Below, piece after piece: positions 32,015 through 62,800 of a DNA stretch of 64,000 bases. The notes under the pieces were generated by a model. That model saw only the letters and a program-made list of their open reading frames with translations. It made no database searches and was not told where the DNA came from. The stretch is from Callorhinchus milii (Eukaryota). The position numbers and the translations under genes are program-made. Within the stretch, counting starts at the first letter, position 1. Each line of letters opens with the position of its first letter. The DNA lies in NCBI RefSeq assembly GCF_018977255.1, contig NW_024704742.1:124498001-124562000 (forward strand), in the 5' to 3' direction.

Positions 32015-32415
32015 CTGTTGAAAAAAAAACCAAACAAAAAAATCCCCCCACGCGTTATCTTCAGCAAAATGCTAATTCTTCAACACAGCGACCAAGGTAT
32101 CCGACAGCTAACGCGTATCTTTCCGTTGCCTGGATTCAATTATTAAATATATCTACGCGTATAGTTATGTATCTTAAGATTTAGGGGGTGGTGGGGAAGC
32201 GCACAATCAATGGCTATCTTTATTGAGAGCCTCCACTGACTGCACCAGAAACGACCCGTGGCGAGAGAGGGAGAACTGAAAAGAAAAGGCTGCTGTATCA
32301 GAGTCGAGAGGCACATTTCACTCTCGTTGTGCAAAGACAGCGCAAATCTTGCGGGAGTCGAGAAACATAAAAGCCAGACGGACGGACGCAGTTCGTGCGC
32401 ACAGTGGTGGTGTAC

Positions 32416-32607
32416 CTTTGCACGGCATACACCCAGGAGCCCCGCCGTTGAAGATGATCCATCTGAACAGGGTGCTGGACGGCACATCGTCTTCTGTCCA
32501 CGCCGTGCCGAGCCTTCCGCTCTTACAGCACTCCTCCCGGCTGACCCGAGTCATGTAGAGGACTTGGCATTTGCCGTTTTTCGCTTGCTGTAACCAGCAG
32601 TTTCCAG
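32416..32607 (-). CDS. FST: Follistatin exon 2 (N-terminal TB domain)
   Basis: ttgcag|CTGGAAAC...AAAG|gtacac; 192 nt, (A)[17 protein letters not shown]...[16 protein letters not shown]...[12 protein letters not shown]. Confidence 0.97.
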
Positions 32608-34050
32608 CTGCAAAACACACACACACACACACACACACACCACACAGTGTCAGTCTCACTGCTCCAGATCGCAACACGTGCACTTCGCACTGACGCGACA
32701 GAGAGTCTTTTATTTCAACTCTTTTTTTTTCTTTGGGTCTCGGTTTGCAGAAACGGGCATCGGCTGCAAACGAGGGGGGGGGACAACGCTTCGCTTTACT
32801 TGTGCTGCGATTATTATTTATCACACCGTTCGAAGTGCGGTTGTCGGGTTTTGAGCAATGATTGCATTGCATTGCGTGTGGAAGTTAACTGGGCTCGGAT
32901 CTAGGACTGCAGAGCTCAGTCCTACCAAAAAAAAGGAGGGGGGGGAGGAAAAAATACGGCATTGATGCCAGAAAGGAAAGTGGACCCATTACAGTGAAAC
33001 CCAGAGCACAGCTTCGTGACTGGCGAGACACTCATCGGATGAGCACAACGTCTGGGAAAAATGACACTGCGGTTGACAGCGTCTGAGTTAAACGACATAA
33101 ACATCAGTTGTAATTATCTGGCAGGTACCATCCAATTGATGGTGCCATCCACTCACATGGGGGGGGGAGATCAGGAATAGAAACATTTGCTGTTTTTTTT
33201 TCTGCACCACTAATTCGTGGTTGAGATTCTTGATCTCTGCTGCCTCTCCTGGAGAGTCACACACAGCCCTCGTACACCAAATACCGAACGCCACAGACAG
33301 GACCCGGAGTTGCACACTTTTATTCAGTCTTCATAGCATTAAAGCAGAAGGCAATCGGGAACGACACACGTGCCTCTCTAATCATTTCCAACCGCACCAA
33401 ATAATCCCACCGGCTCCTGGACGGGGGTCGCTTGATTCGCGTGAAATCGCAACACGATTTACCTCCTCCAGTCCGACCGAACACCGATTCGTGTCGTGAG
33501 TCGATGGTCCACGAAGGTGATGGGACTTTCTAAGACACGATTCACCTACTGGAGGGTCTAACACCGGCTGTGAATGCTCACGGCCGCGATCGCGAACCAT
33601 TAACGCACTGAGAGCGAGTGCACCCACAACACACGCAGGACAGGTAACGCCAACACACTTTCACGCCCTCTGACCACATACTACAGACCGTCTGTGCCAT
33701 AAAGTTCTCGTGAATTTTTTTTTGGGGGGAGAGCACACCAACACGTGTGGCGGTATTCAAAATGCAACCGGACTGCATCGGACGGCCCGCAGACAACTTC
33801 CTCTGATCCCAAACGTGTTCATTTTTTTTTGGGGGGTGGGTGGGGGGTTACCACGGTTCGTCTCGGGGGATCGTTTGCAAATGTTCCCCCTCGTCCAAAG
33901 CGAGGATCCGAGAGGCGCTCGGGGGGGGGACGTGCACACATTCAACGTGGAGCGATGACTCTGAATCCAAATATACATCCACAATCCTTCTCCCTCCCCC
34001 CAACCCCCCACCCCACTCCCCCCCCCCCCCCCAAAAAAAAAAAAACTCAC

Positions 34051-40200: not shown

Positions 40201-40525
40201 CTCCGCCTTGACACATTCTACCCCTCAAGGCAGACTCCCAAATAGTCATAGTTGCCCATGATCATTGCCTTCTGACTCCACAATCCACCGTCACCGCAAA
40301 AGCAGATACCCCCGAATAAACCAAGGTGCTCGAGTATAACATCAATGACATACAATTACAATTACAAAAAGAAATCTTATGCAAAAATGTTGGACCAACA
40401 CAATTCACATTCAACCCTCCTCAAAAGGTCTCTCTTGTGTCACCGCAAAGGCGCCCATGTCAAAATGAAGCGTTTGATGAACCACTGTAAATGTTTCTAC
40501 AGCCAGAAACATCATTCCATTAAAA

Positions 40526-41532
40526 TCATCTCAGAGGTGAGTTGGGTCTGCTGGACCGCAGGCTACCCAGCGATCTTTTTAAGGAGCTGTAAGACCTTTC
40601 GTGTTTCTTTTTGGCTGCCTTATAGCATTGACGCACTTGCCACTTCCTGAAAGCTTTCTGTATAGTCAGGGCAGCCTTGATCTCTTTGCGTATCATGAGA
40701 GTAGTCGTTGTCGTTCGCATTGTACTTCGAATTGGAAACAATTTCATTGCTTTAGTGAGGGTTTTCTCACTCAGCTTCTTCAAGGGCTCGGTCTCCACTA
40801 TATTACCAATCACCACAGAGCTGAGAGATTTGAGGACATCCAGGCAATGCAACTTGTGGCCGTCCACCAACGGGAAGTTGAGAGCAGCTATTTTGACTGC
40901 ATTGGGCTTTGGGATCTGCAAAGGATGCTTCAGCTCGTGTAAGAAGTCAGGCAGCTGCTCGTAGGTGATAAACTGTGTCGCGTTGGGATCAAAATTGCTC
41001 CAGACCTCATAAAACATGTCCACGTCTTCGTCGGTCACTCCGGAGATTTCCTGCTCTTGGGCTTCGTGGAAGTTTTCCAGAATCACCGCCACGTACATGT
41101 TGATGATGACTATGTTCGCGCACAGTATATACGATGTCATGTAGATGATGGCGACAAATGGACGCTGTTCCTTGGAGTGAACCATCACCTGCAGGACCTC
41201 ATTCCAGGCGGCGGCGGTGGTTAACCTGAACAGGAGCATCATACTGTTGCCGAAGGTTTCGAAATTGACGATGTCGTTTATCGGGGGTTCACGCGTTAGA
41301 TCGCGGAACAGATTCATTCCCAGGATGGCGTAAATGAACATAACAAGACCCAGCAGCAGCCCGATGTTGAAGAGCGCCGGGATGGAGATGACCAACGTGA
41401 AGAGGAGCTTTCGAATCCCCTTCAAGGACCTCACCAGCCTCAGTAAGCGGGCGAGCCGCACAATGCGGAACACCCGCAAAATAGTTGGGGAAACCGCTTG
41501 CTTTTTGGATGCAGTGGAGTCCAATAAAATTC
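40526..41532 (-). CDS. Nav2-type channel, terminal exon: DIV S4-S6, EF-hand-like C-terminal domain and IQ motif
   Basis: ccattag|GAATT...TGA; S4 RVFRIVRLARLLRLVRSLKGIRK, pore FRLTTAAAWNEVL, S6 INMYVAVILENF, FYEVWSNFDPNATQFI, IQ motif IQKAFRKW. Confidence 0.97.
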
Positions 41533-43606
41533 CTAATGGCACACGAAGAAAACGCAGAGTCAATACCGCACAGAGGCACAAGACTGACATTCAACGCCGC
41601 GGTTCCCCTGGATCTTATAAACGCCAATTTTTTTATTTTTTTTGGGGGGGGGGGTTTGGAAGGACGAATGAGCTGTGAATTATAGCTATTAATATTACGT
41701 GGTCCAGATGATCCACGTCCTGATCAATTCCAATACTATTCCAAGTCCGTCACTGAAACGGTCCATTTATATAACGTCCTCTGATGCAGTTCAGCGTTGC
41801 TCAATAAGATTGTTAAACATGTTATGTTTAATTGTATACTTCTAATCACATCATCACCTCTTGTGGCGAATGTTGCATTTTATGCAAGGTCCTTTTTTCC
41901 CCTTAAATTATTGCAAATAGCTACTAATTCCACCCCGATTTTGACAATGGAAAAATACTTTATCCCAATACATCATTCTTATGTCCATTGGAACATAGGT
42001 TGTTCCAGAACTTCCCTTCGGGAATGCAACTAATCCTTTTAATGGCATTGCATACGGCATTTGTGTTGATGAGTTTCTCTTCTCAGGATGAGAAAGTTGA
42101 TAGAATCCCAATTTTAAAACGATCCTCTTATTGAGCACGCCGAGCCTGTTTGGATGCAACATATATTGACCATTGTGTCCTGTTTAGGACATGATGGTTT
42201 ACCTGTTAGCTAACCGTGGTTGTTCAAAAGATCAGTCAGCATGTTTACATCCTTCAAGATTTCTCCACTAAGTCTATATTCATGAAGATTCACCATCTTG
42301 CACACAGATGTCCTTTATATAGAAATTCTGAAGAAATAATTCGCCTATGTTGACATTTAAGATGTGGGGAGCTACTCAAAAGCTTGGGAACGTTTAATAG
42401 GATCTTTGAAACACATCTTTATGATAATATTAATAATCCTTACATTAGATCTGGTGCCTTATCACGCCATTGAGATATTTCAAAGTGCTTCTCAGGATTT
42501 GCTGTATTTACAGGAGAATGCTGCAGCCAAATATTCTGTGCGAAGTAATGTTCCAACAAACAGTTATGAATTGCATGATCAGTATAAACTGAGGGATTGT
42601 TGGTTGGGACACCAGGAGAAACTCCCTCCTCATTTTGAATCATATACATCTTCAACATTCAAACGATGAAAGCTCATCAACTAGATCCTTAATTTTCTGT
42701 ATAATGATATCTTTCCATCAGTCAGATATTCCAAAGTTGCAGTGGTATCTTAACAGCCTCAGTTTTCAAGCTTCTTTAGCAAAATTCTAATAATTTCTCA
42801 TCGGTAGTTTTATTTCTAGTTCTATAAAACAGTACACAATGCTGACATATCTGGTCTTCAGCACAATTCAATTTTGTTACAGATGTGATTATTGCTTGTT
42901 AAAAATCCCACTGTTCTATATTAACTGTGGTGACTGAAGAGATTATCTTCTTCCACTTTGAATTTCATTAATTAATGACAGGCATAAGTATCAAACTGTT
43001 CCATTGTTTTACAGAGATTACTGGTGACTGCTGTGATAATAACAGGAATCCTGTTGGTGCTGAGTACACCTTAGACTAAAATAATCAGGAGTTCTTTGTG
43101 GTTTAGGTTTACCATTGTCTTTATGGAGTCTTTAGTGAGTGGTAACTACATTTGAGCAACAATAGTGATAGATTAGTCTAGCAGTTGGAGTTCGTTTAGC
43201 AACAATTAATCACCAATTATCATGCCACCGGAAGTCTGATATTCCTCAGGGTGTAGTCTTAAAACCATTACCAAAAATTTAGGATTGTGCAGTTTTAGAA
43301 AAGTCTTAAATTCAATCCCAATTTTGAAAGTGGTTTCCAAATTCAAATTGAATTTAAACATTTTGCAAAATTCTGTATGATCTCTTCATTTTAGCAAAAT
43401 GCAGGAGCACAAAAAGTGATTTTCTTCATCAAAAATCAATGCTCTCTATTACTGTATTAACAGTAAGGAAGAAGTCTGTTTTGTACTGGAGATACAAATT
43501 GACTTCTTACCTTGTGTTGCAAAGACACTCCTTTGGAGTCTTTAGGAAGAGCCCATGGGTCTGTATATTCTGCTTGCTTTTTCAGAAGAGGAAGATATCT
43601 GCTTGT

Positions 43607-43940
43607 GGAGTCCTGTAGCTCAGTGGTTAGAGCACTCGCTTTGCAAGAGAGAGACCTGAGTTCAATTCCAGGCAGGGCGAAACCTTGGGCAAGTTTCCTT
43701 ACTCCACACGCCTAATAATAATCCCTCCAAAAAAAAAAATAATAATAATAAATTGGTCATTTTCAATCTACGACTGTTTGTGGGACATTGCTGTGCACAA
43801 TTGGCTGCCGCGTTCGCCCACAAATATACAGTCAATTCACTTTACAGTGTGTTCTGTGAAGCGCTTTGGGACGTCCTCCCGACGTGAAAAGCGCCATATC
43901 AAATGCAAGGATTATTATTATTATTATTATTATTATTATT
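43607..43940 (+). mobile_element. tRNA-derived SINE (short form, young)
   Basis: Full-length, intact A/B boxes, (tta)n tail. Confidence 0.92.
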
Positions 43941-45427
43941 GTCGCTAGCCTGGCACAGTGGTAGCCCTCTCGCTTCTGAGTCAGAAGACTATGGGATTAA
44001 GCCCCACATTGAGCCTCTAAACTGATATCTCCCACCTCCACAACATTGCCAGCTCTGCTACTGTCTCACACCACAGGCTGCCGAGACCTTCATACACGCA
44101 TTCATAATATCCAGGCTCGACTACACAAACTCCCTGCTTGTCGGCCTCCCCAACTCCTCCCTCCATAGGTTGCAGATCATCCAGAACTCTGCAGCCTGTA
44201 TCCTCTCCCGCACCGGGCTCCGCGACCCTATCACGCCCATCCTCAAGGATTATTATTATTATCCCTTTAAGGTGAATAAAGGAGAACAGCTCCAACCCCT
44301 TTAAATCCAATTGTCGTCTAGTTTGTTGTTAAAAGGGTGATTGTCTGGGCTAGGAATAATCTATTTAAACAGAGTGTACAGAAAAGAAATAAGTAAATTC
44401 AAGTTTTTTTCTTTTGGAAGGTGTGATTCATCATTTAAATTGAAGTCACATTTCCACAGATACACAAATACTCAAATAATTTCCTCCAAATTAAAACCAC
44501 AGGTATCATAATATAATATATTTTCCACTTTGAATTGGCCTTTGAATTAATAATCCCAATAGATTCAATATTCCAAGAATAGCAAAATTCGATGTTTTTT
44601 TCATAAATATCTGTGCCTACTTGTGAAAGAACATTTCACTCACAAAACAGTCAATTCACTTTACCGTATACTGTGAGAAATTCTTTGAGACATTTTGAAG
44701 ACATGATAAGGCATTATATCAAATGCAAGAATTATTATTAATATATAACGAAAGCTGATCTAACAGAAAATAATATGACATGCACATTACAGCAGGTGTG
44801 TCTGATGATATCACAGAAATGTATACATTTTCAGAACAGAAAGACACCATTCAGCCCATTGTTTCTGTGTTATGCTTCTCGTTGTCCTTGTAAATCACAA
44901 TGAAACACTGCAGTTACAATTAGGGAATATGTCTAATGACTAATGACTAAGTTATTTGATATTTTTGTAAAAATAATTTTAAAAAAGCTACATAAAAAAA
45001 TTAATAGTTATAAAAAGCAAACAAACCCCTATATTCTTTATATGTTTGAGCAGAAAGATACAACTCCATACTGGGTTCATGAATGGATCTATTTTGTTCC
45101 TTGGTTGACTCAGCTGACATGATTTCAGGGATATTCCAGTGGGAACTGGAATTCTTCCCACTCAGCTCCTGTTAACCCTACAAGCCAATATTTTAATGGA
45201 TAGGGTGGTCATAGCTGGACAAGCAGTAGGAAGCCTGCCAGAAAAGTGCTTTCAATAGCAAGTTGTGAGGCTTTAACTGGTTACTCCAGCAGTACTCCCA
45301 ATGCACACACTATGGGATCATATAGCCTTGGCTATTGCACTTTGAAAAAATCTTCCCTTTTAAGAAAAAATCCTCCCCTCACCTCCTTTACCAAAGAAAA
45401 AAATATAACAGTAAACATATGAGTTAC

Positions 45428-45698
45428 CTGCAATGGAAAGAATAACAACTATAAAATCAAAGATATTCCAGGCTTGAGTGAAGTAGTATAGACGTTGGCC
45501 TGAAAGTTTTACAACTGCTTCAAGTGTGAATAAGGCTGTGAAGATAATGTTGAACCAATTTAAAACAGTGGCAAATGTTTTTGTCTGCCCATAATGATCG
45601 CATGCCATTACCAACACGTTCAAGGTTATCAGGCCAATGGTGCAAGGCTCAAAACCTTTATGGCTCACTAGCTTGTAGAACTGCAAAGATATTTTATT
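45428..45698 (-). CDS. Nav2-type channel, exon encoding DIV S1-S3
   Basis: caacag|AATAAA...ATTGCAG|gtaact; 271 nt, ...FTALFTLEAVVKLSGQRLYYFTQAWNIFDFIVVILSIA; WNIFDF motif; size equals the equivalent Nav1 exon. Confidence 0.95.
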
Positions 45699-46259
45699 CT
45701 GTTGAAAAGAAATAAAAACAATTAGTAAAGGAACATCATTTAAAGCTTTCTTTCCCACAATCTCAATCTTCCTAAAATATGCTTATGTTCAAACCATGTC
45801 CTAATCTAACATTTACAATCTAACTAAAATATAATCTACATAAATTCATTATACAGCAAATTATGTCAGAGTAATCGCATAGACAATACAACTAAAATGT
45901 TTCATTAAATCAAGTATTCTTTGTAACGTTTATTCCATGTGCTGTTAAGTAAACACATTTTATCACAACTGTTCTGTACTTTGTAAATTTAAGATGCGTA
46001 GTAATTTACAATGTAATAATTTACAATTTTAACAGTCTAGAAATGATACTTTCAATTCTATTTTAGTAAACATTCATATATAGATCAGTTGATGCTGTGC
46101 ACATTGATATCATTTACAAAATAACACCAGATATTTTTGTCACATTTGCTATGATCTGCTATGATGTGGCATCACATACAACAACAACAAATTTACAAAT
46201 TTGCATTAATATAGTGCTTTCATGTTGGGAGGATGTTCCAAGCAGTTGAAGTAGAGCAA

Positions 46260-46810
46260 TCATAGAATTATAGAATTATACAGCACAGAAGGAGACCATT
46301 CGGCCCATCATGTCTGTGCCGGTTCTTTGAAAGAGCTATCCAAATTAATCCCACTCCCCGCTCTCTCCCCATAGCCTTGCAAATTTGTCCTCCCCAAATA
46401 TCGTGCAGTCCTGTAGCTCAGTGGTTAGAGCACTCGCTTTGCAAGCGAGAGACCTGAGTTCAATTCCAGGCAGGGCGAAACCTTGGGCAAGTTTCCTTAC
46501 TCCACACGCCTAATAATAATCCCTCCAAAAAAAATAAATAAATAATAATAAATTGGTCATTTTCAATCTACGACTGTTTGTGGGACATTGCTGTGCACAA
46601 TTGGCTGCCGCGTTCGCCCACAAATATACAGTCAATTCACTTTACAGTGTGTTCTGTGAAGCACTTTGGGACGTCCTCCCGACGTGAAAAGCGCTATATC
46701 AAATGCAAGGACTAAGGACAACTAGGACTATCTCTCTTGAGCATTGTTGTTGAATCTGCTTTCACCACACTGGCAGTGCATTCCAGATCCGAACAACTTG
46801 CTGTGTGAAA
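46260..46810. mobile_element. Young SINE (+, 46407-46711) nested in a CR1 3' end (-)
   Basis: CR1 tail catagaattatagaatt...ccattcggccc upstream, resuming as gcattccagatccgaacaacttgctgtgtgaaaa after the SINE. Confidence 0.85.
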
Positions 46811-49800
46811 ATCTAATAATTTACTCCCAATCTGGAGTGGGAAACTGGAATAATACTGCATGCTCCAAATTGCTTGGGCCTGGGGCCATAGTTGAATTCT
46901 ATGGATCTACAATTAAGCACTAGCACAGAGGAAACATTGCCTGCCATTCAAAGCTTGATAATCTATAAAAAATATGGGACATGATAGCTCAAACAATTTT
47001 AATAATATTGAAAAGTTTGTTTTGTTGTTTACAAGTCCCTTTTGCATCAGCTGCAGGAAAAGGGGACAAATACTACAACCATTTGTATTGATTCATTCCT
47101 GAAACCACATCTGGAAGTCGATTCAGGAAGAGGTTTAAAACCAGTTACAGTATTTCATTTGAAACTGGTGCGTACCATAGGTTTATTGTTCGTTTGACGC
47201 GATTGACACTGTAAGCACTGTATAAGTGAAGCATTTTAAATTACTGTATGGAACAGTCCCAGCACAGGCAGTTAACTGAACGGTATGAATAGGCCACCCA
47301 CCATCAGTCTTATCACTGAATGATTGCTCTAGGGTTCCCTTAAACATATTGTGTTAAGAAACACCAGCTGTGTTGTCGAATAGAACATCTGTTTCAGCTA
47401 AATAATTTGAAAGAGTTGCCTTAATTGGTCCCCTTCCCCTTTCGCAGCAGATCAATTTTTCAGCTGTGATAATATCAACATAGCTACCCACCAACTCACA
47501 AGTGAAGTTGTGGCGAAGGGGGGCTGCACGTCTTATTCTTACTTAAAAAGAGGTAAATTTGAATCAATGAAATGGAGACACTTTCAACTAAAAACTGAAA
47601 TCAAACATATATCTTTGGGGAAGTCCAGAAGAGGTTAATGAACAGGCTCTTTCTGAAAGCAGTGGGATCAGCAGTAGCAGAGGTGTCTCCAGGTGTAGAT
47701 ATAAGTAACTGTTTAAGGATGTGGGTATCAGTGAAAGCATCCTGTGTATTTTCCAGCAGTCACAGAATATAATACTCATTAGGAATGCAGAACAGGATGT
47801 TTTCAATGACTTCTGCTGCTCTCAAGATCCCTTGCCGCACAAAGTTTAATAAAGAAGCTCAGAAGCTAAAACTAGCCAGGTTGATAAACACTAGCAATGA
47901 TCTTATAGATACCCCTCATATTAATTGACCAAAAATATAATTTTCCCCTCCATAGACAACATCTATGAAGAGTGTGATAAGAACAGATCTATTTTAGGTG
48001 TCATTGAAAGGGCAAAGAGGAGTGAAACAGAGAGTAACACAACACTGTAAAGATGCACAGGAGGAGGAAATGAGATAATGTGCTAATTCCTTTAGTTTGC
48101 AGACTTATTACTCTTATAAGTGTGTCATGGTTGAAGTGGGAACATTTTCATGTACCATTTTCAGCAACATAAGATAGACTTTGATTGTGAATGCTAATGG
48201 GCCAGTTTGACTGGTTTATATGGGTTGAATTAACTCTGCTATTCATCTGTAAGTGTAAAGAACACAATCCCAAATGAACAAAATCAATGAGAGACCATCA
48301 CACACCGCTTTGACTTCACGTCATAAATGGACATTGGACAATTACACAAACAGATAAGATCATGAGGACCTCCTACCAAGACCTTAAAGCTTTACAATAT
48401 AATAATATCCACAGATTTGCAATGCAATACAAATCTACAACAATTGTTGCAAAATATACCATCATGATCAGAGTGAAACAGGGAAGTCACTTTTGAAGAG
48501 GCCAATTAAAAACCCTTCAAGTTGAAAATGTCTAAACATTTGATTATTACCAGATGATACGCAAAGAACTTTAAAATTCCTTGAAGCAGAAAATGTTACA
48601 CCGAAAATTGTAATAAATTAGAATTCAAACATTATTCAGGGAAATTGTAGATTGAAAATGAGTTTACTAGCTTGACCTTCCCATGACCTCATGCACCTAC
48701 ATGTCAAGGATGGAAACTTTAATTGACTTTTGTTAGCCTTTTAATGTAATACCATTCTGATATAAATAATACAAGTTAAGACTTATGAAATTAATGGTAA
48801 ATTGTCTGGAGATGGTTTTATCAATAGGTAGCACAATCGAACAGAGAAATCCTCAGTGACCTCAATGCTCATGAAATATCTGTAGTTGTTACACTAAATC
48901 AATGTAGGTCCTAAGGTATTAATGCTAATTGTAACATTGAGGTTGAACTTCATTATATGAAACATCGTGTCACATATCATTTTTTATTTGGTAATAGTTT
49001 TCTGGTTCACATACTATAATTTACTAAATAATGCATATCTGAGGCATGCCTGGCATAAAATTCATCTGGGTCTAGATTTATGCTGTTAAAGTGGCACTTT
49101 AGAGATCATCAAATTCTTAAATACAGTCTGTAATTTTTATGCCAGTTTCTGTAAGTTCTTTTAAGTTTAAAGTGAAAACTGAATTCAATAATTTGCCAAA
49201 GTTAATACACTCCGAAATGCTACTTTAATAGAGTAAATTGCTATCCCATATTATTTTATTAGATTGCACGGAAAAGAGATGGAATACTTCAGTATTTTAA
49301 TTCCGTTTGTACCGAAATTTCCATTTCAATATAATGTTGCTATTTTAAACAAGAATTGAAAAAAAAAGTAATCAAAAACTTTACGGGTAACTACTTTGAA
49401 AACAATACTTTATTCATATGTACCAGGTGTTTTTCCCTTAGCAATCTGTGTTTGAAAGGTTCCTCTGTAGAGTTCACAAACATCCACCAGTTGTTAAGGA
49501 AGTGTAACAGATTCTCTCGAGTGACACCAGCCAAGGGGATTCCTGTGGAGTGTGTCCATTCCATATTGATACTAGTGTACTCTGGACTGAATTACAAGCT
49601 TTTACTGTAAGTGGACTGGTGACTGATTTGAGCTAAAATTCCTTCATAATTTTCTATTTTTTTATAGGCTTCTGCTGAGGACAGAGTAAAAGCTCCAATT
49701 TCATCCTTAATGTGGTCAGGTGTAGAAATGGACACATCAGAGCGCACATAGAGTTTAATGCATCCAGGTACAAAAAATACAGTTTCACTCTGGACGTTGT

Positions 49801-50889
49801 AAGATTGAAAACGAAAATGTAAAAGTCACTAATTAAATAAAACCTTAAGTGACTTAAGCTGCAGCTATTTTTGTGTTGTGCATGGCAGGAAGGGTAACCA
49901 CTAGCGATGTAAAGCAATTAACTGCCTCTAATATTTTGGATATTGCTGGAAAAAGAGAATTGTGAGAACCAGTTTACTCCCAGATCTACACTGCCTTAAA
50001 ATATAATTAACAAGTGATCAAAGCTATGCAGTGGAGCTCTGTGGATTTGTATAGTTAGGTACACATAATGCTTTACTTTCATTTAATTCAGCGTCTGACA
50101 AGAGCAATTCAGAGCAGGAAGTATAATTCCTCTTCCCTCCCTCCAATGGCCTGCTCCATGTCGCTGGTCCTATCTGCTCCACTATTGGTGGTCGGACTTT
50201 CAACCTTCCTGCCCCCACTCTCTGGAACTCCATCTTGGAGACCCTTCAGCTCGCTCGCCTCTCCTTCTTCAGAGTCTGTCTAAAGATATTATTCTTTGAT
50301 TGTGCCTTTGGTCATCTTTCCCCCATCCCCAACCTTCCACCCCACCTTGGCTGCTACCCCCAGCTTCGATACCAACCCTGGACTATCCAGCAGCTCGGGA
50401 CATCCTCCTGACGTAAAATGTGCTATACAAATGTAAATTGTAATAATCCTTACATTTGATATAGTGCCTTATCACGTCTTCGAGGTGACTCAAAGCGCTT
50501 CACAGAATATACTGTAAAGTGAATTGACTGTATATTTGTGGGCAAAATGTGGCAGCCAATTGCACACAGCAGTGTCCCACAAATAGTCGTGGATTGAAGT
50601 GACCAATTTCTTTATTTTTTTCATGAGAGATTATTATTAAACATGTGGAGTAAGGAAACTTGCCCAAGGTTTCGCCCTGCAAAACCTTTGTTGTTGTTGC
50701 TGCTTTCATGCTTTGAATTGCTCTGCTACTGGAAGCAATGTCACATATTTTCTTTCCCAGCAAACACAAGTTCCTAAATGTATACTTAAATAGAATTTAG
50801 GTTTTAGCAAATCAATTAGGTTTCTCAATAAAACACAATGCCTGCTTTCAGAATCAACTGGGTAGGTTATGCCTTTTTTTTACTGGCAA

Positions 50890-51400
50890 AGAACTCTGCA
50901 GCTCGTGTACTGTCCCGCACCAGGCTTCGCGACCACATCACTCCCACCCTCGCTGATCGAATTCAAGATCCTCATCCTCACCTACAAGGCCATTCACGGC
51001 CTTGCTCCCTCCTACCTCTCTGACCTACTATCCCCCTACCTACCTGCCCATACCCTCCATTCCTCTGGCTCCGGTTAGCTCCACATCCCCCGCCCCAACC
51101 GCCCTACCATCAGTGGCCGGGCCTTCAGCCTCTCAACCCCTAGGCTCTGGAACTCTATCCCCAGTGCCTTTGCCTTGCTTCCTCCCTTTCCTCCTTCAAG
51201 GCCGGTCTCAAGACCTTTCTCTTTGACCGTGCCTTCAGCTCCCCTCTCGACTCTCTACCCCCTCCTTGCTCCCTCCCTTCCCTCCCCTCACCTTGACCAT
51301 TTCCCCCCTGCTCGGGTCCTGATCCAACTGTACAGCGCCTTGGGACGTCCTCCCGACGTGAAAGGCGCTCTATAAATGGAATCTTGTTGTTGTTGTTGTT
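50890..51400 (+). mobile_element. L2 LINE 3' fragment
   Basis: IEFKILILTYKAIHGLAPSYLSDLL; tail cagcgccttgggacgtcctcccgacgtgaaaggcgc...(gtt)n. Confidence 0.88.
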
Positions 51401-51404
51401 GTTT

Positions 51405-51835
51405 AAGAAGGGATCTAAGTGAGGTGTTTAGAATTATAAATGGGTTCAATTTGGTTAGCATAAATAGGCTGTTCTACTTTTTCATGGGTCCATAAATTGA
51501 ATAATGTATAATAAGACAATGATAAGGTAATAATAATGAATAATAAGTCAAGTAAAAGATAGTGATGAGGGGATTTAGAAGAAAATTTAGGAAGATGTTT
51601 TTCATGCAAAAGATAATGAGAATGTGGAACTCGCTGCCTGAAATGGTGATTAAGCAGATAGTATAGATAAGCTTAGCAGGAAGTTGGATACACAGTACAT
51701 TTGAGGGAGAGGGGAATAGAAGCACTGGGATTCTGGGCATGCGAGTGAGGAAGGAGTGGGTGGAGACTCATGTGGAGTATAAACACCAGTACAGACTGGT
51801 TAGACTGAATGACCTGTTTCCACGCTGCACAGTTG
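51405..51835 (+). mobile_element. CR1 LINE 3' fragment
   Basis: gggatctaagtgaggtgtttagaattat...aatgtggaactcgctgcctg...; similar to the 17500-17890 copy. Confidence 0.75.
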
Positions 51836-52318
51836 ATGTAAATAATTGACGTTGGCCTCAGTGTAAATCCATTTTTACCGCAGCCGATTTCAAATGAAGT
51901 TTAAAAATGTAACTTTTGAAAGTCCACTGGACTGCAAACACCCTTTTTAGTTCTAACAAAGAAATCAATTTCATTCTCTTTAATAATATTAGAAAATTAA
52001 TAGCATTTGGTGATATTTAGAAGAACTCAGTACAAGCACTAAAACGACAGACAATCTTGTTCTGCTCCTGCAAATCCTGCTAAATTACAAGGGGCATAAA
52101 AGAAATGACGTCAAACCCTCAACAGTGTGTTGAACAAATACACAGTCAATTCACTTTACAGTATAGTCTGTGAAGCGCTTTGAGATGTCTAGAATTCGTG
52201 ATAAAGCTCTATACCAAATTTTATTAGCGTTTTATTATTCGTTAATGATCCTGTTCTGTATCATAAAAGCAGCATCTGAATATTTTTATTAAAGCCAAGA
52301 TACATTATCAAAGCATAC

Positions 52319-52432
52319 CTTAGGAGCGGGAATTTTCTTAGTTGGTTTAGCTTGAGAAAGACGTTTGAACGTGCTATAAAATCTTCTCTGATCTTCAGTG
52401 AGAAGCGTGACTAACGCACCTTCTTTTCGTGA
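52319..52432 (-). CDS. Nav2-type channel, exon encoding the DIII-DIV linker (inactivation gate region)
   Basis: tgttgcag|TCACGA...CCTAAG|gtatgc; 114 nt, SRKEGALVTLLTEDQRRFYSTFKRLSQAKPTKKIPAPK, alignable to Nav1 [33 protein letters not shown]. Confidence 0.93.
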
Positions 52433-53129
52433 CTGCAACAAAAGCAAAAGCAAATTCAGAAATGCAAAAAACTGAGACAAAATCTCTGCATGTTGCACCA
52501 CAGATTTCATCTGAGATTACTGCATTCTTACAAAGCATTGTCTGCCATCTGTAGGACTTGCTGTTTCTGTTCTGTTTTCTTTGGTTTATCAGTACTCCCC
52601 ACGAGAATATCACAGATAGAGAAATGTAGGCCTGCTTTCAATTACTGTATCATATGTGACAATCCAGGATTGGACCCAATTCCCAATTTCAACATAAATA
52701 AACAAACAATGTGGAAAGTATGCAGACAAGGTGCCTCAGCTAACTAGGACTTACATTTTAATCACTGGACCTAATCTCTGGAGGTCCGCGTTTGAGCTTA
52801 CTTAAGGAAAAAAGAGATGATGGGCCTGATTGCATTATCTACCACCAGCAAATCTTGTGCATATGTATTATTTTGTTTGTTTTCTTAGCTCAGTGTAGAA
52901 TGATGCTCTGGCCATACGTGTTAATGTAGCAGGCTCCATTCTGTATCACCACAGAGACGGAAATAGTTTGAATCGGTATTTGTAAAATGCGCATAATCCG
53001 TAAATTAAAACTTTGTAGAAAAGTGTGATGCATGAGTTGGCCTTGCACCCATTTCCTTTTAGGAACAATGTGTAGTTGTAGTGGCATTGCACCAATCCAC
53101 AATCCCTTGGATAAAATACTATTTAGGAG

Positions 53130-54195
53130 ACAGCCTGACTCAGGTGGTAGCACTCCCACCTCTGGGTCATAAGGTTGTGAGTTCAAGCCCCATTATGGGA
53201 CTTTGGGCTCATATAGTCTAGGTTAGGGTGACCATACAATGAAGTATTGGAGAAGCCCTGCATATTGGAGGTGACATCCTTCAGATGAGATGCTAAACTG
53301 AGTTCCCATCTGCCCATTCAGGTGCATGGTAAAGATCCCATAGCACTGTTTTCAAACATAAGTTAGTTTCTCCCAGTGTCTTTGCCAATAATTCTCCAGA
53401 TAAAATTGGCGTTCACTTTGTGGCTGTCTGTGGGCAAATTGGCTGCTGTGTTCACCTCCAAAATAGTCACTAGATTTTACAGTAAGTCCTGTAAAGCACT
53501 TTGAGACATTCTCCTAACATGGAAGCTCAGTGGTTAGAGCACTCGCTTTGCAAGTGAGAGACCTGAGTTCAATTCCAGGCAGAGGGCGAAACCTTGGGCA
53601 AGTTTCCTTACTCCACACAGAGCCTAATAATAATCCCTCCAAAAAACAAAACAATAATAAATTGGTCATTTTCAATCTACGACTGTTTGTGGGACATTGC
53701 TGTGTGCAATTGGCTGACGTGTTCGCCCACAAATATAGTCAATTCACTTTACAGTGTGTTCTGTGAAGCACTTTGGGACGTCCTCCCGACGTGAAAAGCG
53801 CTATATCAAATGCAAGGATTATTATTAATATTAATGATAATATGTCTGCTCAACATCACAGGATTTACTATAAAGTGTATTGATAGCGTATTTGTGGCTG
53901 AAAGCGCCAACCAATTTGCATATAATGTCCCATAAAAAGCCATGGAATGAATGACCAATTTTACCTGGGGAATTGTTAGCCAAGACACAGGAGAAACTCC
54001 CTTCCTTCTCTTCTAGAATAGAACCATGGATCTTTAATGCCCACTTTAACAAGCAGAAGGGGCCTTGGTTTAACCTTTCATCCAAAGGATGGCATCCCTG
54101 ACAATGCAGAGCACATCCAGCACTATGTTGTAGTCTGTGAGCTCAAAGTCCCAATGTGGAGCTTGAACCCACAACGTCTGACTGGAAGGTGAGAA
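53130..54195. mobile_element. SINE cluster: old Deu-SINE (+, 53130-53515), young SINE (+, 53524-53829), old Deu-SINE (-, 53850-54195)
   Basis: tggtagcactcccacctctgggtcataaggttgtgagttcaagccc...aaagatccca on +; its reverse complement (ccatggatcttta...gcttgaacccacaac) at the right. Confidence 0.8.
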
Positions 54196-54880
54196 TGATA
54201 TCATATTGTGCATCCACAATCGGCCAATCAGCACCATAAGCCATACATGTATCACATTTCTGGTGTACCACTGATGCACAATCCGGTTATGCAATGATGA
54301 AGAGCATAGTAATAGTGTCAGCCTATATTTGTGCTCCTAGAAATGTCATTTTAATTTTGAGGATTGTTGGCCAGGGCACTGGGCAAAACTTTCTTCTCAT
54401 TTTAAACTCTGTTTAATTAACTTCTCCGCCCCCATCCTTTGGAACTCCATCCCTCAATTCCTTCGCCTCGCTCCCTCCCTTGCCTCCTTCAAGGCACGTC
54501 TAAGACCCTGATCTTCCACCACGACTTTGGCCACCCTCCTACCTTCTCTCCCTTCCACCCGCCCCGATCCCAACCCCCCGCTCAGGTCCAAATTCCTGAC
54601 TGTGAAAGGCACTTTACAAATGCTATTTGGTATTGTATGCCATGTGCTTTTTAATATCCATCTGTAAACAGGCACATCAAACCTTGGTTTAACAAAATTC
54701 ATCATCTCTGATATAGCATTGCTCCCTCAGTCATCCATTGCAATATAAACCTAGATTATGAGCTCAAGCCCTGGTGCAGGGCTCAAACTTACAACCTTCT
54801 GAACCTAAGGCGAGAGTTTACCAACTGATCCAAATGAAGGGATAATATAATCGAGATTAATATTACTTTCAAAAACTCAC

Positions 54881-55018
54881 CCTTTTATGCATGGTGTTGA
54901 AATTGTCAATAATTATACCAATGAAAAGATTCAGAGTGAAAAATGTTCCAATGACTATAAAAGCAACAAAGTAGAAGAGACTATAAGGATTTGCTCCCAT
55001 TTCAGGCTGAAAGTCGAT
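54881..55018 (-). CDS. Nav2-type channel, exon encoding DIII S6
   Basis: ttggcag|ATCGAC...AAAAGG|gtgagt; 138 nt, [46 protein letters not shown] (Nav motif [15 protein letters not shown]); absent from the ORF track. Confidence 0.95.
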
Positions 55019-56645
55019 CTGCCAAAGACAATACAAGTGTTAGTATTACAGTCTGGTAGAAGTATGAACAATTCTATTTTAAGCAGTAAAACCAAAATGG
55101 ACAATACGTTTTTAAAATGTACAATCTTCCTCCGAATTTACAAACTGATAAATATCTTTGTACAGTCAAAGAATTATTATAGTTTTATTTGTGGAGAGGA
55201 TGCTGGTCAAAAGCAGGACCTGATCTGTTTCACTTACACACTTACTGCTTCAACTATATCACACACTTGAATATGTAACAGTGTGAAGCTTCAATATTTA
55301 ACAACCAATTTTAGTTTCTGCTGATCTATTCAAGTGATCTCAATGGTAACGTCAGTAAACAGGAAATTTCCTGCATTAAGTTTGGAAGCAAACCTACTAT
55401 TTAAAAATAGTCAGCATTCCAAGCCACTTTGTTCAAGTTTAGGAGTTAATCAGTTGAGTGTAGCAAATGGGAAACAAATATGCTCTGGTGACGCCAAAAG
55501 CCAAATATGAGCAGTCTCAATGGACCACGGCCACTTGCCAGCTCTATACAGTTCTCATATGCGTACCAATTGAGATACATCTTTTTAGTTTTCATTGAGT
55601 TCTCATATTTGCTATCAAAATACAGAGCGAAGCATGTGGAAATGACCTGCAACTGGCACATATTGGTTGTACAAAACGCCTCCCTGATATTAGTCAGAAG
55701 GTGCCCACTTTGTGTCTACTTTACTGATTCATTCATGCAAGGCATTACTAACCATGGTGGTGGGTGAGTTGTTTGATGCTCTGATGTTTAGTAAATTTAT
55801 TGACAATCTATTGAGGAGCCTTTGAGATGCAGATTATTGCTAAAGTTTTTGTAATTTGTGTATTTATTTTAAAATCCCCTCTATTGTATCACCATTGATA
55901 TTCTAATGCATCTCTCAGTATCACCATTATGGGTGGTGTGTGAAACAAGGAGACCAGGTTTCCCTGAGTCACACATCATCCATAATCCAGCACCTTGGGA
56001 CATCCTCCCGATGTGAAAGGCACCATACAAATGTATTTTATATTGCATTGCATTAGAATGGAGATTTAGTAATGACCAGGCCTTGGAGCGTTACTTTTCC
56101 CAGTGGGTGGGACAGTCCTGCATGGGGTGAGAGCCACAGGGAGGGAGGTGGTGGGCGGGGGTGGTGGTGGGGGAGAAAAACATTTTGTCTTAAAATTTAA
56201 GATTGTGAATAATTGTGGGAAATTAATTAATTTTAAATTTAATTATTATAAATTAAAATCTCTATTTGGAAGATAGTTGTTTTTAGAAAAAACTGTGGAA
56301 AACCGACTCTCAAATATATAACTCAATGTAGAAATTTTCTATAATCCATCTCTTTCTATCTCATATTATAAGACAAATTTGTCTTGCAGGCTAAAACTAG
56401 GTGGGATTTCAGGCATATAAGATCAAGGTCTTGGGAGTGGAAATAAATGAAATAAGAGTAGATACATTCTGTGTTTTATATTTAAATTGCCTCCCATGAA
56501 CTGACATTTTCAGTCCATAAGGCATTTTTCATGTAATTAGTAAAATTGCACAGCAATGATCTTAAATTATTGTAAGAACCTAGGGCTTGATGCTCCTGTA
56601 GAGTTAATGGTTTCTCATTCAATATAAACAAAATTGTGAACCTAC

Positions 56646-56699
56646 CCCTCGGGTATCAGCAGCATTGGCCATAATTTCCAACCAGCCTTCAAATGTCGC
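56646..56699 (-). CDS. Nav2-type channel, 54-nt exon with the DIII selectivity filter (ATFEGWLEIMANAADTRG)
   Basis: ttacag|GCGACATTTGAAGGCTGG...CGAGGG|gtagg; same size and phase as the Nav1 ATFKGWMDIMYAAVDSR exon; in frame with both neighbouring exons; absent from the ORF track. Confidence 0.95.
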
Positions 56700-57084
56700 C
56701 TGTAAATAGATAAAGCCAGCAGAAAATGGTGTCATTGACATAAATATCTTCAGTAACGTTAACAATGACATTCAAGATAATATATAATAATAATCCTTGC
56801 ATTTGATGTTTTCATACCATGTTTTCAAGACGTCTCAAAGTACTTCACAGAATATACTGTGAAGTGAATTGACTGTATATTTTTTGGGCGAAACACAGCA
56901 GCCAATTGCGCACAGCAGTGTCCCACAAACAGTCGTGGATTGAATGACCAATTATTTGTTTTGAAGGAATTATTATGACTCTTATCTGAGATAAAATGAC
57001 TCTTATCTGAAAACTAAACCGTAGTATTCACAGGAGATCACAGGACAGGTTCAAATGAAAAGGTTTCTCGGCCTTATGATTTGA

Positions 57085-57655
57085 TTTCCTGCTTGCCGGC
57101 CTTCCCAACTCTTCCATCTGCAAGCTTCAGATCATCCAGAACTCTGCAGCTCATGTCCTCTCCCGCACCAGGCTCCGTGACCCAAGTAGCCCAACCCTCG
57201 CCCGGCTCCATTGACTCCCCATGCCGCAGAGGATAGAGTTCAAAATCCTTGTCCTCGATTTCAAGGCCCTCCTTGACCTTGCCCCTCCCTACCTCTGCGA
57301 CCTGCTGAACCTATATTAACCTGTCCGCTCCCTCCACTCAGCAGGCTCTGGCCTGTCCCATGTCCCCCAGCCCAACCCGCCCCACCATTGGCGGTAGGGG
57401 CTTTAGCCTTTCTGTCCCCAACCTATGGACCTTCATCCCACATTCGCTTTGCCTCGCTTCCTCCCTTGCCTCCTTCAAGGCATGTCTCAAGACCCTCCTT
57501 TTTGACCCAGCCTTCAGCCACCCTCCTACCCGCTCTGCCATCCATCCTCCCTGATCCCAACCCCCAGCTCAGGTCCAAATCCTTGACTGTCCAGCGCTTT
57601 GGGATGTCCTCCTGATGTGAAAGATGCTATACAAATGTAATTTAGTGTTGTATTG
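57085..57655 (+). mobile_element. L2 LINE 3' fragment
   Basis: cttcagatcatccagaactctgcagc...gagttcaaaatcctt...; tail cagcgctttgggatgtcctcctgatgtgaaag. Confidence 0.85.
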
Positions 57656-59581
57656 TAAATTTAGGGGATCATCTTTGTTGCTCTCCTTTGTTTCTAGGCC
57701 CTGAGCAGCCTCTTTTTGTCACAAAGACCAGCATCCTACACAATGCTTAAGGTGTGGCTTAAACCAGAGCATTGTATAGCTTGGGAGCTGAATTCCATTG
57801 ATATGGCAATTTAGCAATCTGTTTGCCTTGTTTATTGTTTATACCCCATTCTAGGGCCCAAAAATGCTCTATCTGACATCATTGCTGCGTGTCCTGCCGC
57901 AAAAGAACCTCCAATGCAAAAAATGTTTTCCCCATATAAACCATTGTATGCTATGCAGCTTTGTGAACCTTTAAAAGGACCAAAGGAAAATCTCTCTTTG
58001 CTGTTTGAATAGTGTCAGGGAGTCTTTAGCATTCACTTGAGCAGAGAGACAGGACCTCAGTTCAATATCTCATTTGACAAAGCAGCACTGGAGGGTCAGT
58101 CTAGACTGTGAGCTCAAAGTCTCAATGTGGCTATTGACCCACGATCTTCTAACCTTCTGACCCAGAGGCGGGTGCTACGAACTGAGCTGAACTGACACAT
58201 TTCTACTACTTATTTCTCTGATGGAAGCAATGTGTAGTCATTTGTTTTTGCTTCCAGGGTTATCACAGCAATTCCCGTTCTGCTATAACTTATGGGTAAG
58301 TGTTGGGAACACCCAGTAAAGCCTCCCACTACAATTTCAGGTACATTTAAAAAGGAAATCTCTTTACAAACACCCGTTAAAATATAACACAGTTCTAACA
58401 TGGTCAGTGACTAACTGTAGTGCCCTGTGGTTGTTTTTCTATTTCTGTTGATTTCTTGATTTGAGGCCAGAGTTAACACCATTTGCCAAGTCCAATAGCA
58501 GACTCCGGCGGAATCCGGTCCTTTGATAGTATGCCTCAAAGCGGCTGCCAGGGATGATTTAAAATGTGGCAAAGTCTGTGAAATTCAAATCAGTGTCTGG
58601 TTCACATTTGGAAATTTCTTCACAGCCTACTCAAAGCCCGATTGCCTAGTCCAGAATTGGACGCAGAGCAATCCTACTTATGAGAAAGGGCAGATGTTAA
58701 ACAATTATTGTGATTACAAGTGATAGATGGTAATAAAAGGATGACTTTACAACTGAAACTTAGTGTCTGTTTATGGGACAGATTAAATACTTAGATCATG
58801 AGTAATTTAATCATTAGCTCTAAAGAAGGAGAACAATTTTTAAGCACTTTTCCAGAACAATTGTAATAAATATTCCTTAATTAAAAATAAATCGTTGAAA
58901 GATTTATCTTGCCACCTTTATTCTCTTTACTGCAATAATGGAATATTTCCTTTCTTAGTTATGTTATACATTTACCAAAAATCTGGGCTATAAATTCCAA
59001 CAGTATTTAAGTCACTCTCCTTTACTTAGGGGGCAGACAAGCACGTCCAAAATCACCATTTATATGCAGCTGCTCATGTACAATGTTGTTTATTTAATGC
59101 AATGAATTAAACCCTGGAACCACATAAGAAACAATGCACTGAAATGAAAAATGTTGACAATATGATTTACAGTTTTCTTCTAAATATGTTTCATTATTCA
59201 CACTTAGAATAGAGCCACTATCAGAATGAGGAGTATATATTTATAAACAATTTAAGACTGTAAGAACGCTTGCAGATATCACAGTGGTTCCATAGAAGTA
59301 CATAGACTGTACAACATTGAAACAAGCCATTCGGCCCTAACAGTCTATGCCTGGGTTTATATTGCACATGAATTTCCACCCATCGCCTCTCCCTATCCCC
59401 CTCTATTTCCTTCCCTTAGCTATAGTATCTTTGGTGCATATTCATAATGTATATATATTTCTGCTAAATCCAAAAGCATTCCTAAATAATGTTTAAGAAT
59501 ATATTGCAATCATTACAGCATTAATATGCCCCCAAAAATTGCAGTCTGTCATTATTATTATATACATTATTGTTTACTTAC

Positions 59582-59854
59582 CACCTGCAGAAGAGCCATG
59601 TAAGCAGTCAATATGTTATCAAAATTAATCTCGGAGTTGACCCATTGGTATCCAATATCCTTATATGCATCACAATCAGATCGATTATTTATTATAGTAA
59701 TGGGAAGGCGTTCATCATTTTCATCCACACATCGAAAAAACATTCCACCAAATATCTGAACACCAACAATGCCAAATATCAGCCAGAATACGAGACACAC
59801 TAACATGACATTAGAAATGGATGGGATCGAAGCAACCAAAGCATTAACAACAAG
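59582..59854 (-). CDS. Nav2-type voltage-gated cation channel alpha subunit, exon encoding DIII S4-S5 linker, S5 and pore loop P1
   Basis: ttacag|CTTGTT...CAGGTG|gtaagt; 273 nt, LVVNALVASIPSISNVMLVCLVFWLIFGIVGVQIFGG...NFDNILTAYMALLQV, matching the Nav DIII pattern VVNAL..IPSI.NVLLVCLIFWLIF...NFDN...YL.LLQV. Confidence 0.95.
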
Positions 59855-62800
59855 CTGTAAGACAAAAGAAAGCATCGACTTAAATTGCAGACTCACTATT
59901 ACAGGGCACAGTGAAAACAGATTCATTTGCAACAAATTCTGGTTCTACAGAGTTACCATGGATGGAACGGTGGAAGCGATATAATATTTAGCTGATAATG
60001 CTTGAGCTATGCATCAATCATTTTGTGGTTAAAGCAGATATTGTGGTATTAACTCTGCATTTTAAAAAAGTTCGTACAATTTTTTAAATAATGTTTCTAA
60101 CTATGACATGTTTGACTAATATTTAAATACATATTTGACATAAATAAAATAGCTTATGAGTTTACACAATGATATCTGTTTTACTTTAGCAGTGAGTTTA
60201 CATATTCTGACAGATCAATAGCAATACTACATATATAGAAAACTAACATTGACACATTTGTTGTTCCTCATGTGAATACTTTTAGGTACATCTTAACATG
60301 TTGCTCTAGTGTTGCAATGCTACTATATTCCTGCTGGTGTCGCTGCTGAGCTGGTTGTCTATGTTCTCAGGGATGTCACCAGCAGAAATATGAAGGGACT
60401 GTCACTGTGAAACACAGGTAGAAACTATGTTCTTGATTTCATTTATTTTGTTTAATCATAAGTTTCATGATAAATTTGCAAATGCAAAAATGTTAACATC
60501 GATGAATATGTGAAAACTTTTTTAAAAAAATCCTTGCATCTTGTTGTCGTTGTTGCATTTGATATAGCACCTTTCACATCGGAAAGACGCCTGAAAGTGC
60601 TTTGAAGGATTCACTGTAAAGTGCATTTACACTGTCACTGCATTTTGTAGGTAGATGCGGCAGCCAAATTGCACACATCAATGTCCCCCAAACAGCCATG
60701 AAGTGAATGGCCATTTTATCTGGAATTTAAGCCCTCTGAACAGTCAGGATTTAAGCAGAATTTTGAAAAAACTGCAAATGCTTGAAACAAAAAGAGAAAA
60801 TGTGCAAATGTGCATCAGATTCATTATCATGCGATTCAATACAGCTCAGACTGAGGGAATGAAAACCTCCTCCCTCTAATGGCTTTGAAGGGCTACTGTA
60901 AAATGGTTTATAGTTCAACCTAAAATGTAGCGAGTGAGTCCTCATCATGGCAGTAAATAATGTATAATAAAGCTCTACTTGTCATCAAATCTCACTCAGA
61001 GAGGGCACAAGGACATCTGGTTTAGAAAATGGCAGTGATGCACTGGTGCTATGGAGGTTGTACTCTACATTTGCGATGTTGCTTAGCTGTAGCTCAAGTA
61101 AGAAATATTATAGCACGATTTCTGATGTTCTCATTGGAATTCTCAACTGTCGTGCATTAAATTGACATTAATTGACATTAAATCTCAATCAGGAAATTTT
61201 CCTGGAAAAATTAGGAGTCAGGATACTTGAGAATATCAGGAGAGAAATGACTTTTAAGCTGTAACAGTCTAGAGGGAGCTTTACTATCTATCCTGTGCTA
61301 TAACTGATCTGGGAGTGTTTAATGTTGAAATTGAGTGCAAAGAGTGGAATATGTTCCATTCTTTATTATTAAATCACATTTGATGACTTTGATGAACAAC
61401 ATTCTCCCACTCCCCCCTCGCCCCGAAGTATGTGGAATTGTATAGTAATCACATAACATTATAATATAACTTATTTTATATGTGATTTGCTGTGACACAG
61501 ACAAAACAGCAGAGTGGTAACAGAAAGCAATGCCTAGTTGTGCTGTACCACAGCAATCTGTGAATTCCCAATCCTTGTATTACTTTAGTCAATACCATAT
61601 GATTTCCAAAGAAATCTTCCCTGCTCCATCTGACGAAATCTCCGCTCTCCAACAGATTGTCTTTTCCTTACGTGTAATGTGATTTTTACTCTTAGGGTTG
61701 AGGCTAGGTTTATACCACGAGAGAGAACAACCTGCAAGTGAGTTGGATAAACTTTGACGAGGGATTCAATATTTTTTCTCAAGCTCAAAAAATAATTTCT
61801 GGCGGGTGATCTCAGTTGTCCATTGTCATGAAACTAGCAGGAACATAATTTTTATTTCCACACTTAAGGGGCCTCTGGAGTGTTATAAACTTCCAACTTT
61901 TTCCATCAGAGCAAAACATCCACAAATCAGATGTTCAAATTCAAAATAGTTTTATGGAGCCAACAAAGATATAACTTCATTACTTCATGTCCCAAGGCTA
62001 GATTTTTGTTCTTATAGTTTACATTTTTTTAAAAGATTGTTTTCCCAGGAAGATATTATTTGGCAGAACATTTGCTACAGCAATGTTTACATCTGGATTT
62101 TATACATTCTTTAATGCCTGTTCCCAGAGCTGGGTTTGAACTTAATTTTTTTAAAAGATGAACTTTTATGCATTAAAAAAAGTTTTTATAGAATCCTATT
62201 GTCCTCCTCAAAATTAAAAGTTGTTTCTTATGCATCTATGAACTGGAGTTTGTTTATATCCCACACATGCTTGTGGTTTGTTTTGGCTGTGATTCACTAA
62301 CAGTAAATGACAGTGATGTCCCTTTTATAAGTGATTGTAGATTGTAGGCACAAGAACTGAGAACAGCAAAGTCCTTCTGTAATGCACCTTGGGTGCTAAA
62401 GCTAATTTTTTAAAATACATTCGTCAATGATTCCTAGCTTTAAGATTGAAACATCTGAGTGAGACATTCCTTTCGCTGCCAAATAGATTGACGGCGTGCG
62501 CTTAATGTGTGCTAAAAGAAAAGTGGCTACACTGAGCTGCAAGAGAAATATTATCCTTTATTTTTGGATGTAATACAAAAATAATATTTTTGCAGCACAT
62601 CCTACTGGAGGTTTAGCACAGGTACATTTAGTGATTTTTTGTGATAACTGTCTTTTATTTGTTCCACTATCTCCCCAGTATAGCAGAATCAAATGATGCT
62701 GTCAAAACAAATACGTTTGATCTGTTATTGAAAAAACAAGGAAATTGCAACTAATTACTTTTTTCCTTCTCGCTCTTGCCAATTTTCTTTATCCCGAAAG

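Follow-up and report, generated by a model that had tools for sequence, protein, structure and literature searches.

The window analysed here, a 64,000-nucleotide (nt) stretch of the Callorhinchus milii (elephant shark or ghostshark) genome (assembly GCF_018977255.1, contig NW_024704742.1, positions 124,498,001 to 124,562,000, forward strand), carries the 3′ portion of a gene for a sodium-channel-family protein that is very probably the single, intact and transcribed vertebrate Nav2 of this species, in identity and in channel type. Six of its exons were resolved in the window, all on the minus strand. Exon 20 of 25 (59582-59854, 273 nt, phase 0) encodes the linker between transmembrane segments S4 and S5 of domain III (DIII), S5, the extracellular loop and the start of the P-loop; exon 21 (56646-56699, 54 nt) encodes the DIII selectivity filter, with a Glu codon at 56690-56688 where Nav1 has Lys; and exon 22 (54881-55018, 138 nt) encodes DIII S6. 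Exon 23 (52319-52432, 114 nt) supplies the III–IV linker, which in alignment is 3 residues longer than that of vertebrate Nav1 and has TLL replacing the IFM latch, and exon 24 (45428-45698, 271 nt) supplies DIV S1–S3. Each of these five is bounded by an AG acceptor and a GT donor. The last, exon 25 (40526-41532), spans DIV S4–S6 with the filter Ala, the C-terminal domain, an IQ-like motif and the stop codon; it matches the Pfam entries Ion_trans and GPHH, and its Pfam IQ score of 18.6 bits lies below the cut-off of 20.3. Its pore loop is short and without its two cysteines, leaving an 18-residue gap in alignment with Nav1.7.

Joined, the six exons give a frame of 618 residues with no stop, which starts shortly before DIII S5 and continues to the C-terminus; all five introns between them are GT..AG with consistent splice phases, as a preliminary description of this DNA had proposed, and public model P0007 has the identical six exons. 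The motifs named in that description were found as well (ATFEGW, GIRKLLF, EGAL in the III–IV linker and FRLTTAAAWNEVL), except that the spacing from TT to W is three residues, not the two given.

Adding 160 kb of upstream DNA and mapping relatives onto it completed the gene, which comprises 25 exons (19 further ones), 5,187 nt and 1,729 residues without a stop (C1:124615956 to 124538526). Domains I and II, whose recovery the preliminary description had set as a check, lie upstream in intact, stop-free exons. Twenty-three introns of the full gene are GT..AG. Intron 2 (C1:124602869-124603604, locus L014), in DI S1, starts with ATATCCTTT, carries the branch site TTCCTTAAT and ends in AC. Both its sequence and its place in DI S1 fit the U12-type AT-AC introns described in the review PMC6259924; an AT-AC intron at this site is common to Nav2, Nav1 and Cav. 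The exons flanking intron 2 are skipped or misjoined in the public models examined, which probably break at their 5′ end because of this U12-type intron.

The first exon, of 110 residues (L015:7627-7956, minus strand), is missing from all public C. milii models examined and was found only via a lamprey protein (26% identity, E 9e-11); its start and donor are predictions from the sequence. Its only likeness is to lamprey Nav2, and it is unlike other Nav N-termini. It has no Pfam match and no second copy in the genome, and its Atlas scores reach only 0.77, which is not meaningful. The full model corrects the database names SCN2A-, SCN3A-, SCN4A-, SCN8A-, SCN9A- or SCN10A-like attached to this Nav2 gene.

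For evidence of transcription, four sequencing runs were aligned to positions 40300-60000 of the window; no run is recorded as RNA, and the RNA label of run X1 is the tool's guess. A 307-nt contig from X1 joins 52319-52432 directly to 54881-55018, that is, the exon 22–23 junction, with no mismatch, which indicates a spliced transcript in at least one sample. Pieces from X1 also lie over exons 20, 24 and 25: one contig covers 59581-59855 (exon 20) and continues into other sequence, and the exon 24 contig also carries 68 nt of the following intron. Contigs from run X2 pass through intron sequence and are DNA-like, and in runs X6 and X8 the pieces listed are repeats and include no exon, a result without evidential value. 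A point against a transcribed gene is that the evidence comes down to one junction in one of three possible RNA runs.

It is nevertheless highly improbable that the locus is a decaying remnant with low-level transcription and no channel function. Public models are fragmentary in most species, three salamander models are without domains I–II, and two of the three possible RNA runs had no exon among the listed pieces (a weak point), as might be expected of a remnant. However, the frame is open across 25 exons and one junction is spliced, where the preliminary description had named upstream stops or frameshifts together with no expression as grounds for rejecting the gene; identity to long shark and ray models is 74-80%; the pore motifs have been retained across the range from lamprey to salamander; and the minor-class intron 2 accounts for gene callers breaking the 5′ end.

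Identity and phylogenetic position

The selectivity filter, D380/E721/E1206/A1502, reads D/E/E/A, the definition of the Nav2 filter (PMC10120453), with no lysine in DII or DIII. At the DIII filter site, all Nav2 rows shown that reach it, vertebrate and invertebrate alike, have Glu, and the Nav1 rows have Lys. The protein further has TLL at the IFM position, a tree position outside Nav1 and four domains with charged S4 segments (3, 5, 6 and 8 basic residues in DI–DIV, counted by eye from printed sequences), and none of the marks considered for Nav1, namely a D/E/K/A filter, an IFM latch and membership of the Nav1 clade. Exon 25 has Nav1.4 as its best solved-structure match (E ~1e-99), with Cav chains at E 2e-56 or weaker, and is 100% identical to C. 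milii proteins labelled SCN4A-like or SCN9A-like, the kind of mislabelling that the preliminary description had foreseen. A genome search returned the Nav2 locus and five other Nav loci; the DIV motifs of all five are of Nav1 type, which leaves one copy of Nav2 among the scored candidates. One of these Nav1 loci (G000:C290:37263-38162) is more divergent than the other four, and its DIV loop is shortened.

Two 29-row trees covering DIII to the C-terminus, the second rooted on Monosiga, place vertebrate Nav2 in a clade with 100/100 support (11 rows in the first tree, 9 in the second). Nav1 forms a separate 100/100 clade, to which mollusc Nav1 belongs and, in the second tree (8 Nav1 rows), also scorpion and tunicate Nav1; vertebrate Nav2 falls outside it. 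The same two clades appear in a quick mixture-model tree and under LG+G4. Grouping with vertebrate Nav1 is rejected by the approximately unbiased (AU) test in both sets (p=4e-4 in the first, p=5e-7 in the second), as is grouping with chordate Nav1 in the second set (p=3e-4). Grouping with amphioxus Nav2 is neither rejected (AU p=0.27) nor shown, and the trees leave the sister among invertebrate Nav2 undecided. One point against a Nav2 assignment from these trees is the long vertebrate Nav2 stem, 0.5 changes per site under LG+G4 and 0.85 under the mixture model; the tree software flagged a risk of long-branch attraction.

That stem, together with unresolved deep nodes, is what would be expected if the gene were a fast-diverging vertebrate Nav1 paralogue whose DIII Lys had reverted to Glu, and the identity of exon 25 to vertebrate Nav1 (41-45%) is near that to invertebrate Nav2 (42-47%). 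We regard this as extremely improbable. The AU tests reject the vertebrate and chordate Nav1 groupings, and do so in one set, the first, from which the column of the DIII filter and the lysine of GIRK had been taken out before tree building. Moreover, the C. milii protein and invertebrate Nav2 have in common the DI motif TLD, the longer III–IV linker and an RL-type DIV pore helix, and Pfam PF06512, present in most Nav1 rows, is missing from the C. milii protein. The filter, the position outside the Nav1 clade, the rejection of nesting within Nav1 and the intact upstream exons all agree with the proposal in the preliminary description that the gene is the vertebrate Nav2 orthologue.

Taxonomic range of vertebrate Nav2

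The presence of Nav2 in C. milii is already known, having been published: the review PMC6259924 credits Zakon 2017 with single Nav2 genes in ghostshark, coelacanth and lampreys. The gene described here is the same gene in the same species, single-copy, with a DEEA filter and outside Nav1, and does not differ in kind from the published vertebrate Nav2. What goes beyond the published account is the full 25-exon model, the new first exon and orthologues in polypterids, acipenseriforms and salamanders; as far as the literature searched shows, the function is unpublished. In PMC6259924, Nav2 is described as lacking in ray-finned fishes and tetrapods, and in a 2023 review (PMC10120453) as lacking in bony vertebrates.

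Orthologues were pooled from word-indexed searches (the best 120 of 4,330, 120 of 496 and 120 of 177 matches) and a profile search (the best 150 of 33,384). Fifty of the 535 pooled proteins were closest to the vertebrate Nav2 panel and 49 were kept; P0434, nearest to that panel at 27% identity, was dropped as a distant channel. By tree, P0361 (a scorpion para model) and P0420 (from a frog) belong to Nav1 and not to Nav2. Counting named members and cluster look-ups, Nav2 orthologues are present in at least 33 species: C. milii, 17 sharks and rays, the coelacanth, 2 polypterids, 5 sturgeons and paddlefish, 4 lampreys and 3 salamanders (Ambystoma, Lissotriton and Pleurodeles). Bichir, sturgeon and salamander rows fall inside the vertebrate Nav2 clade (both trees pooled), and on these sequences Nav2 has apparently survived in non-neopterygian ray-finned fishes and in salamanders. 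If this range holds, the published statement that ray-finned fishes and tetrapods lack Nav2 is wrong, the salamander gene would be the first tetrapod Nav2, and axolotl and sterlet would become tractable models. The literature searched, which largely excludes subscription journals, yielded no article that reports Nav2 from a bichir, sturgeon or salamander or ties it to electroreception.

The three salamander models, of 380, 643 and 1,169 residues, are incomplete, with open frames that are 83-93% identical to each other. None contains domains I–II, and no salamander piece of these domains is among the best 120 of 177 matches. In all three (P0041, P0042 and P0124), DIV S4 has one basic residue fewer than in shark and lamprey, as does DIII S4 where covered, a charge loss that suggests changed or relaxed gating. 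The III–IV linker of P0042 (Ambystoma) contains about 240 unrelated residues, and the Pfam entries of the protein include Myb/SANT-like ones; this insert is probably a transposon piece taken as an exon.

Teleosts, frogs and amniotes have no Nav2 member among the matches listed, though their Nav1 proteins appear there. Gar, bowfin, hagfish, lungfish and caecilians likewise have no member among those matches, a weak absence because the presence of their proteomes in the collection is not shown.

Predicted channel properties and candidate site of action

Expressed Nav2 channels are slow and non-selective, passing Ca2+ and Na+ through a DEEA pore, and are without the IFM latch (PMC6259924, PMC10120453); by analogy, vertebrate Nav2 should carry a slow, Ca2+- and Na+-permeable current. 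Judging from its family, the protein would be a four-domain voltage-gated channel that opens on depolarization. It would pass both ions because its filter has no lysine, and would gate slowly and, having no IFM latch, without the fast inactivation of Nav1; given its charged S4 segments, it should sense voltage. The lack of both filter lysine and latch would produce a slow or sustained Ca2+-carrying inward current rather than spikes, and with it a Ca2+ signal serving graded responses in non-neuronal or receptor cells, not action potentials.

Two points weigh against these predictions. First, the literature searched holds no recording of a vertebrate Nav2, so that selectivity and kinetics are argued by analogy. 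Second, gating may differ from that of insect and cnidarian Nav2 because the protein no longer has one of the DI S4 charges, the cysteines of the DIV loop or the usual N-terminus. Invertebrate Nav2 channels (Drosophila DSC1/NaCP60E, cockroach BSC1 and those of amphioxus, Nematostella and Monosiga) are alike in the D/E/E/A filter, the missing IFM latch, the longer III–IV linker and the AT-AC intron in DI S1. They retain, however, Phe at the latch position, where all vertebrate Nav2 rows shown have Leu or Val. DI S4 carries three charges in shark, bichir, sturgeon and lamprey Nav2, whereas amphioxus Nav2 and Nav1.4 have four; none of the six vertebrate Nav2 rows aligned has the cysteine-bridged DIV pore loop seen in Nav1.7 and amphioxus Nav2; and the N-terminus, common only to lamprey, is vertebrate Nav2's own and unlike that of invertebrate Nav2. 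Vertebrate Nav1 channels (SCN1A-SCN11A) are alike in their four-domain plan, C-terminal domain and IQ-like motif, and vertebrate Nav2 differs from them by Glu for Lys in the DIII filter, the lack of IFM, a separate clade and the short DIV loop.

Where such a current would be used is less clear. The best-supported single site at present, though still rather doubtful, is the sensory epithelium of the lateral line, above all the ampullary organs, in which the channel would provide a helper inward current beside Cav1.3. The latter reportedly accounts for most of the inward current in skate electroreceptors. On a broader and equally tentative reading, vertebrate Nav2 would be an overlooked, poorly inactivating, Ca2+-permeable channel of the ancestral electrosensory or lateral-line receptor cell, retained by lampreys, chondrichthyans, bichirs, sturgeons, the coelacanth and salamanders and lost together with electroreception in hagfish, the gar–bowfin–teleost group, frogs and amniotes.

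This match between lineages and electroreception was drawn before expression tables were examined. All lineages in which Nav2 was found keep electroreceptors, coelacanth and bichir included, and the four groups without them have no member among the matches listed. Lungfish and caecilians also have electroreceptors, and no orthologue from either is among the matches listed, which counts against the proposed site. According to PMC5429088, lampreys and jawed fishes other than teleosts have electroreceptors; hagfish do not, gars, bowfin, teleosts and anurans have lost theirs, and amniotes have lost the whole lateral line.

Published sturgeon data offer tentative expression evidence. In Table S1 of PMC7720607, the sole 'sodium channel protein' row is annotated NACP60E (DmNav2) and filed as common to both organs, ampullary organ and neuromast; the table has no SCN-named row, and the word 'sodium' does not occur in the main text. 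The row is probably the vertebrate Nav2 gene, from its annotation, because NCBI calls several sturgeon orthologues '60E-like'. Its transcript carries the identifier TRINITY_DN91069_c5_g1 (GEO GSE151096), and the sterlet Nav2 protein is XP_058845413.1. Relative to general epithelium its log2 fold change is 3.57 in ampullary organs (about 12-fold) and 2.63 in neuromasts (about 6-fold), with a neuromast-minus-ampullary value of -0.94 (false discovery rate 0.027), and among the first 20 rows listed as common to both organs, only one has a value above 3.57. The same pattern is seen in that table for Kcna5 (3.66/3.03/-0.62, in the same order) and for one of two Kcnab3 rows (3.46/2.75/-0.71), and by in situ hybridization Kcna5 and Kcnab3 are found in ampullary organs only (PMC13069148).

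Several features of the data weigh against a lateral-line site. The enriched lists take in 2,074 of 22,647 sturgeon unigenes (9%), the control was trunk skin, not head, the replicates were halves of one pool, and no Nav-like row is present among the 7 Ion_trans rows of a paddlefish lateral-line list. On whether Nav2 joins the electroreceptor channel set (Cav1.3, BK, Kcna5 and Kcnab3), the sturgeon and paddlefish lists point in opposite ways. Markers of olfactory tissue (OMP), lens (crystallins) and liver in the sturgeon data reveal stray tissue. Among other sources, the main text of a catshark tissue atlas (PMC11979771; the catshark orthologue is XP_038648881.1), a skate channel preprint and a sturgeon ribbon-synapse paper have no sodium-channel passage, and files 1-12 of 44 of the sturgeon single-cell atlas supplements gave no match.

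We give about an even chance to the same channel having its job outside the lateral line, in olfactory, taste or other head epithelium, gonad, gill or gut, with the electroreceptive match reflecting slow-evolving genomes that keep old genes. Vertebrate Nav2 is described as expressed only outside the nervous system, and insect Nav2 has been linked to smell (PMC6259924). The OMP and crystallins in the ampullary sample point to neighbouring tissue in a comparison with trunk skin, and the absence of Nav2 from the paddlefish list and of lungfish and caecilian sequences from the matches listed fits such a site as well. By contrast, the transcript is 6-fold up in neuromasts too and tracks Kcna5 and Kcnab3, and salamanders have Nav2 whereas no frog protein falls in the group among the matches listed. 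If the link to ampullary organs is true, electroreceptors would possess an unrecognized voltage-gated inward channel besides Cav1.3, which would be the first function for vertebrate Nav2, and the repeated losses of the gene would be explained by repeated losses of electroreception, gene and sense disappearing together.

Neighbourhood and other features of the window

Downstream of the channel by about 8 kb, on the same (minus) strand, is a follistatin-type gene with FST_N and Kazal domains (window 29549-32884), followed by NDUFS4 at C1:124.458 Mb. On the other side are a MoaE-domain, MOCS2-like gene at C1:124.63 Mb and integrin-like VWA matches at C1:124.67-124.79 Mb. The local order over G000:C1:124.458-124.79 Mb is integrin alpha-like, MOCS2-like, Nav2, FST, NDUFS4. 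In the human genome the order is ITGA1-ITGA2-MOCS2-FST-NDUFS4, and no channel is known between MOCS2 and FST. Between these two neighbours, the Nav2 gene would have been kept from the chordate ancestor.

High-GC stretches lie at about 24-26 kb and 32-34 kb of the window. Seven tRNA-Ala calls were made, at window positions 2452-2523, 3880-3951, 11598-11667, 16513-16584, 24079-24150, 43610-43679 and 46408-46477. Two of them, in channel introns, stand at the start of elements roughly 300 bases long that are nearly identical and have very high read depth, and for this reason these two are probably heads of tRNA-derived short interspersed nuclear elements, not tRNA genes. Two further fragments, at window 12401-13594 (minus strand) and 21627-21971 (plus strand), resemble what we take to be a reverse transcriptase of the long interspersed nuclear element (LINE) type.

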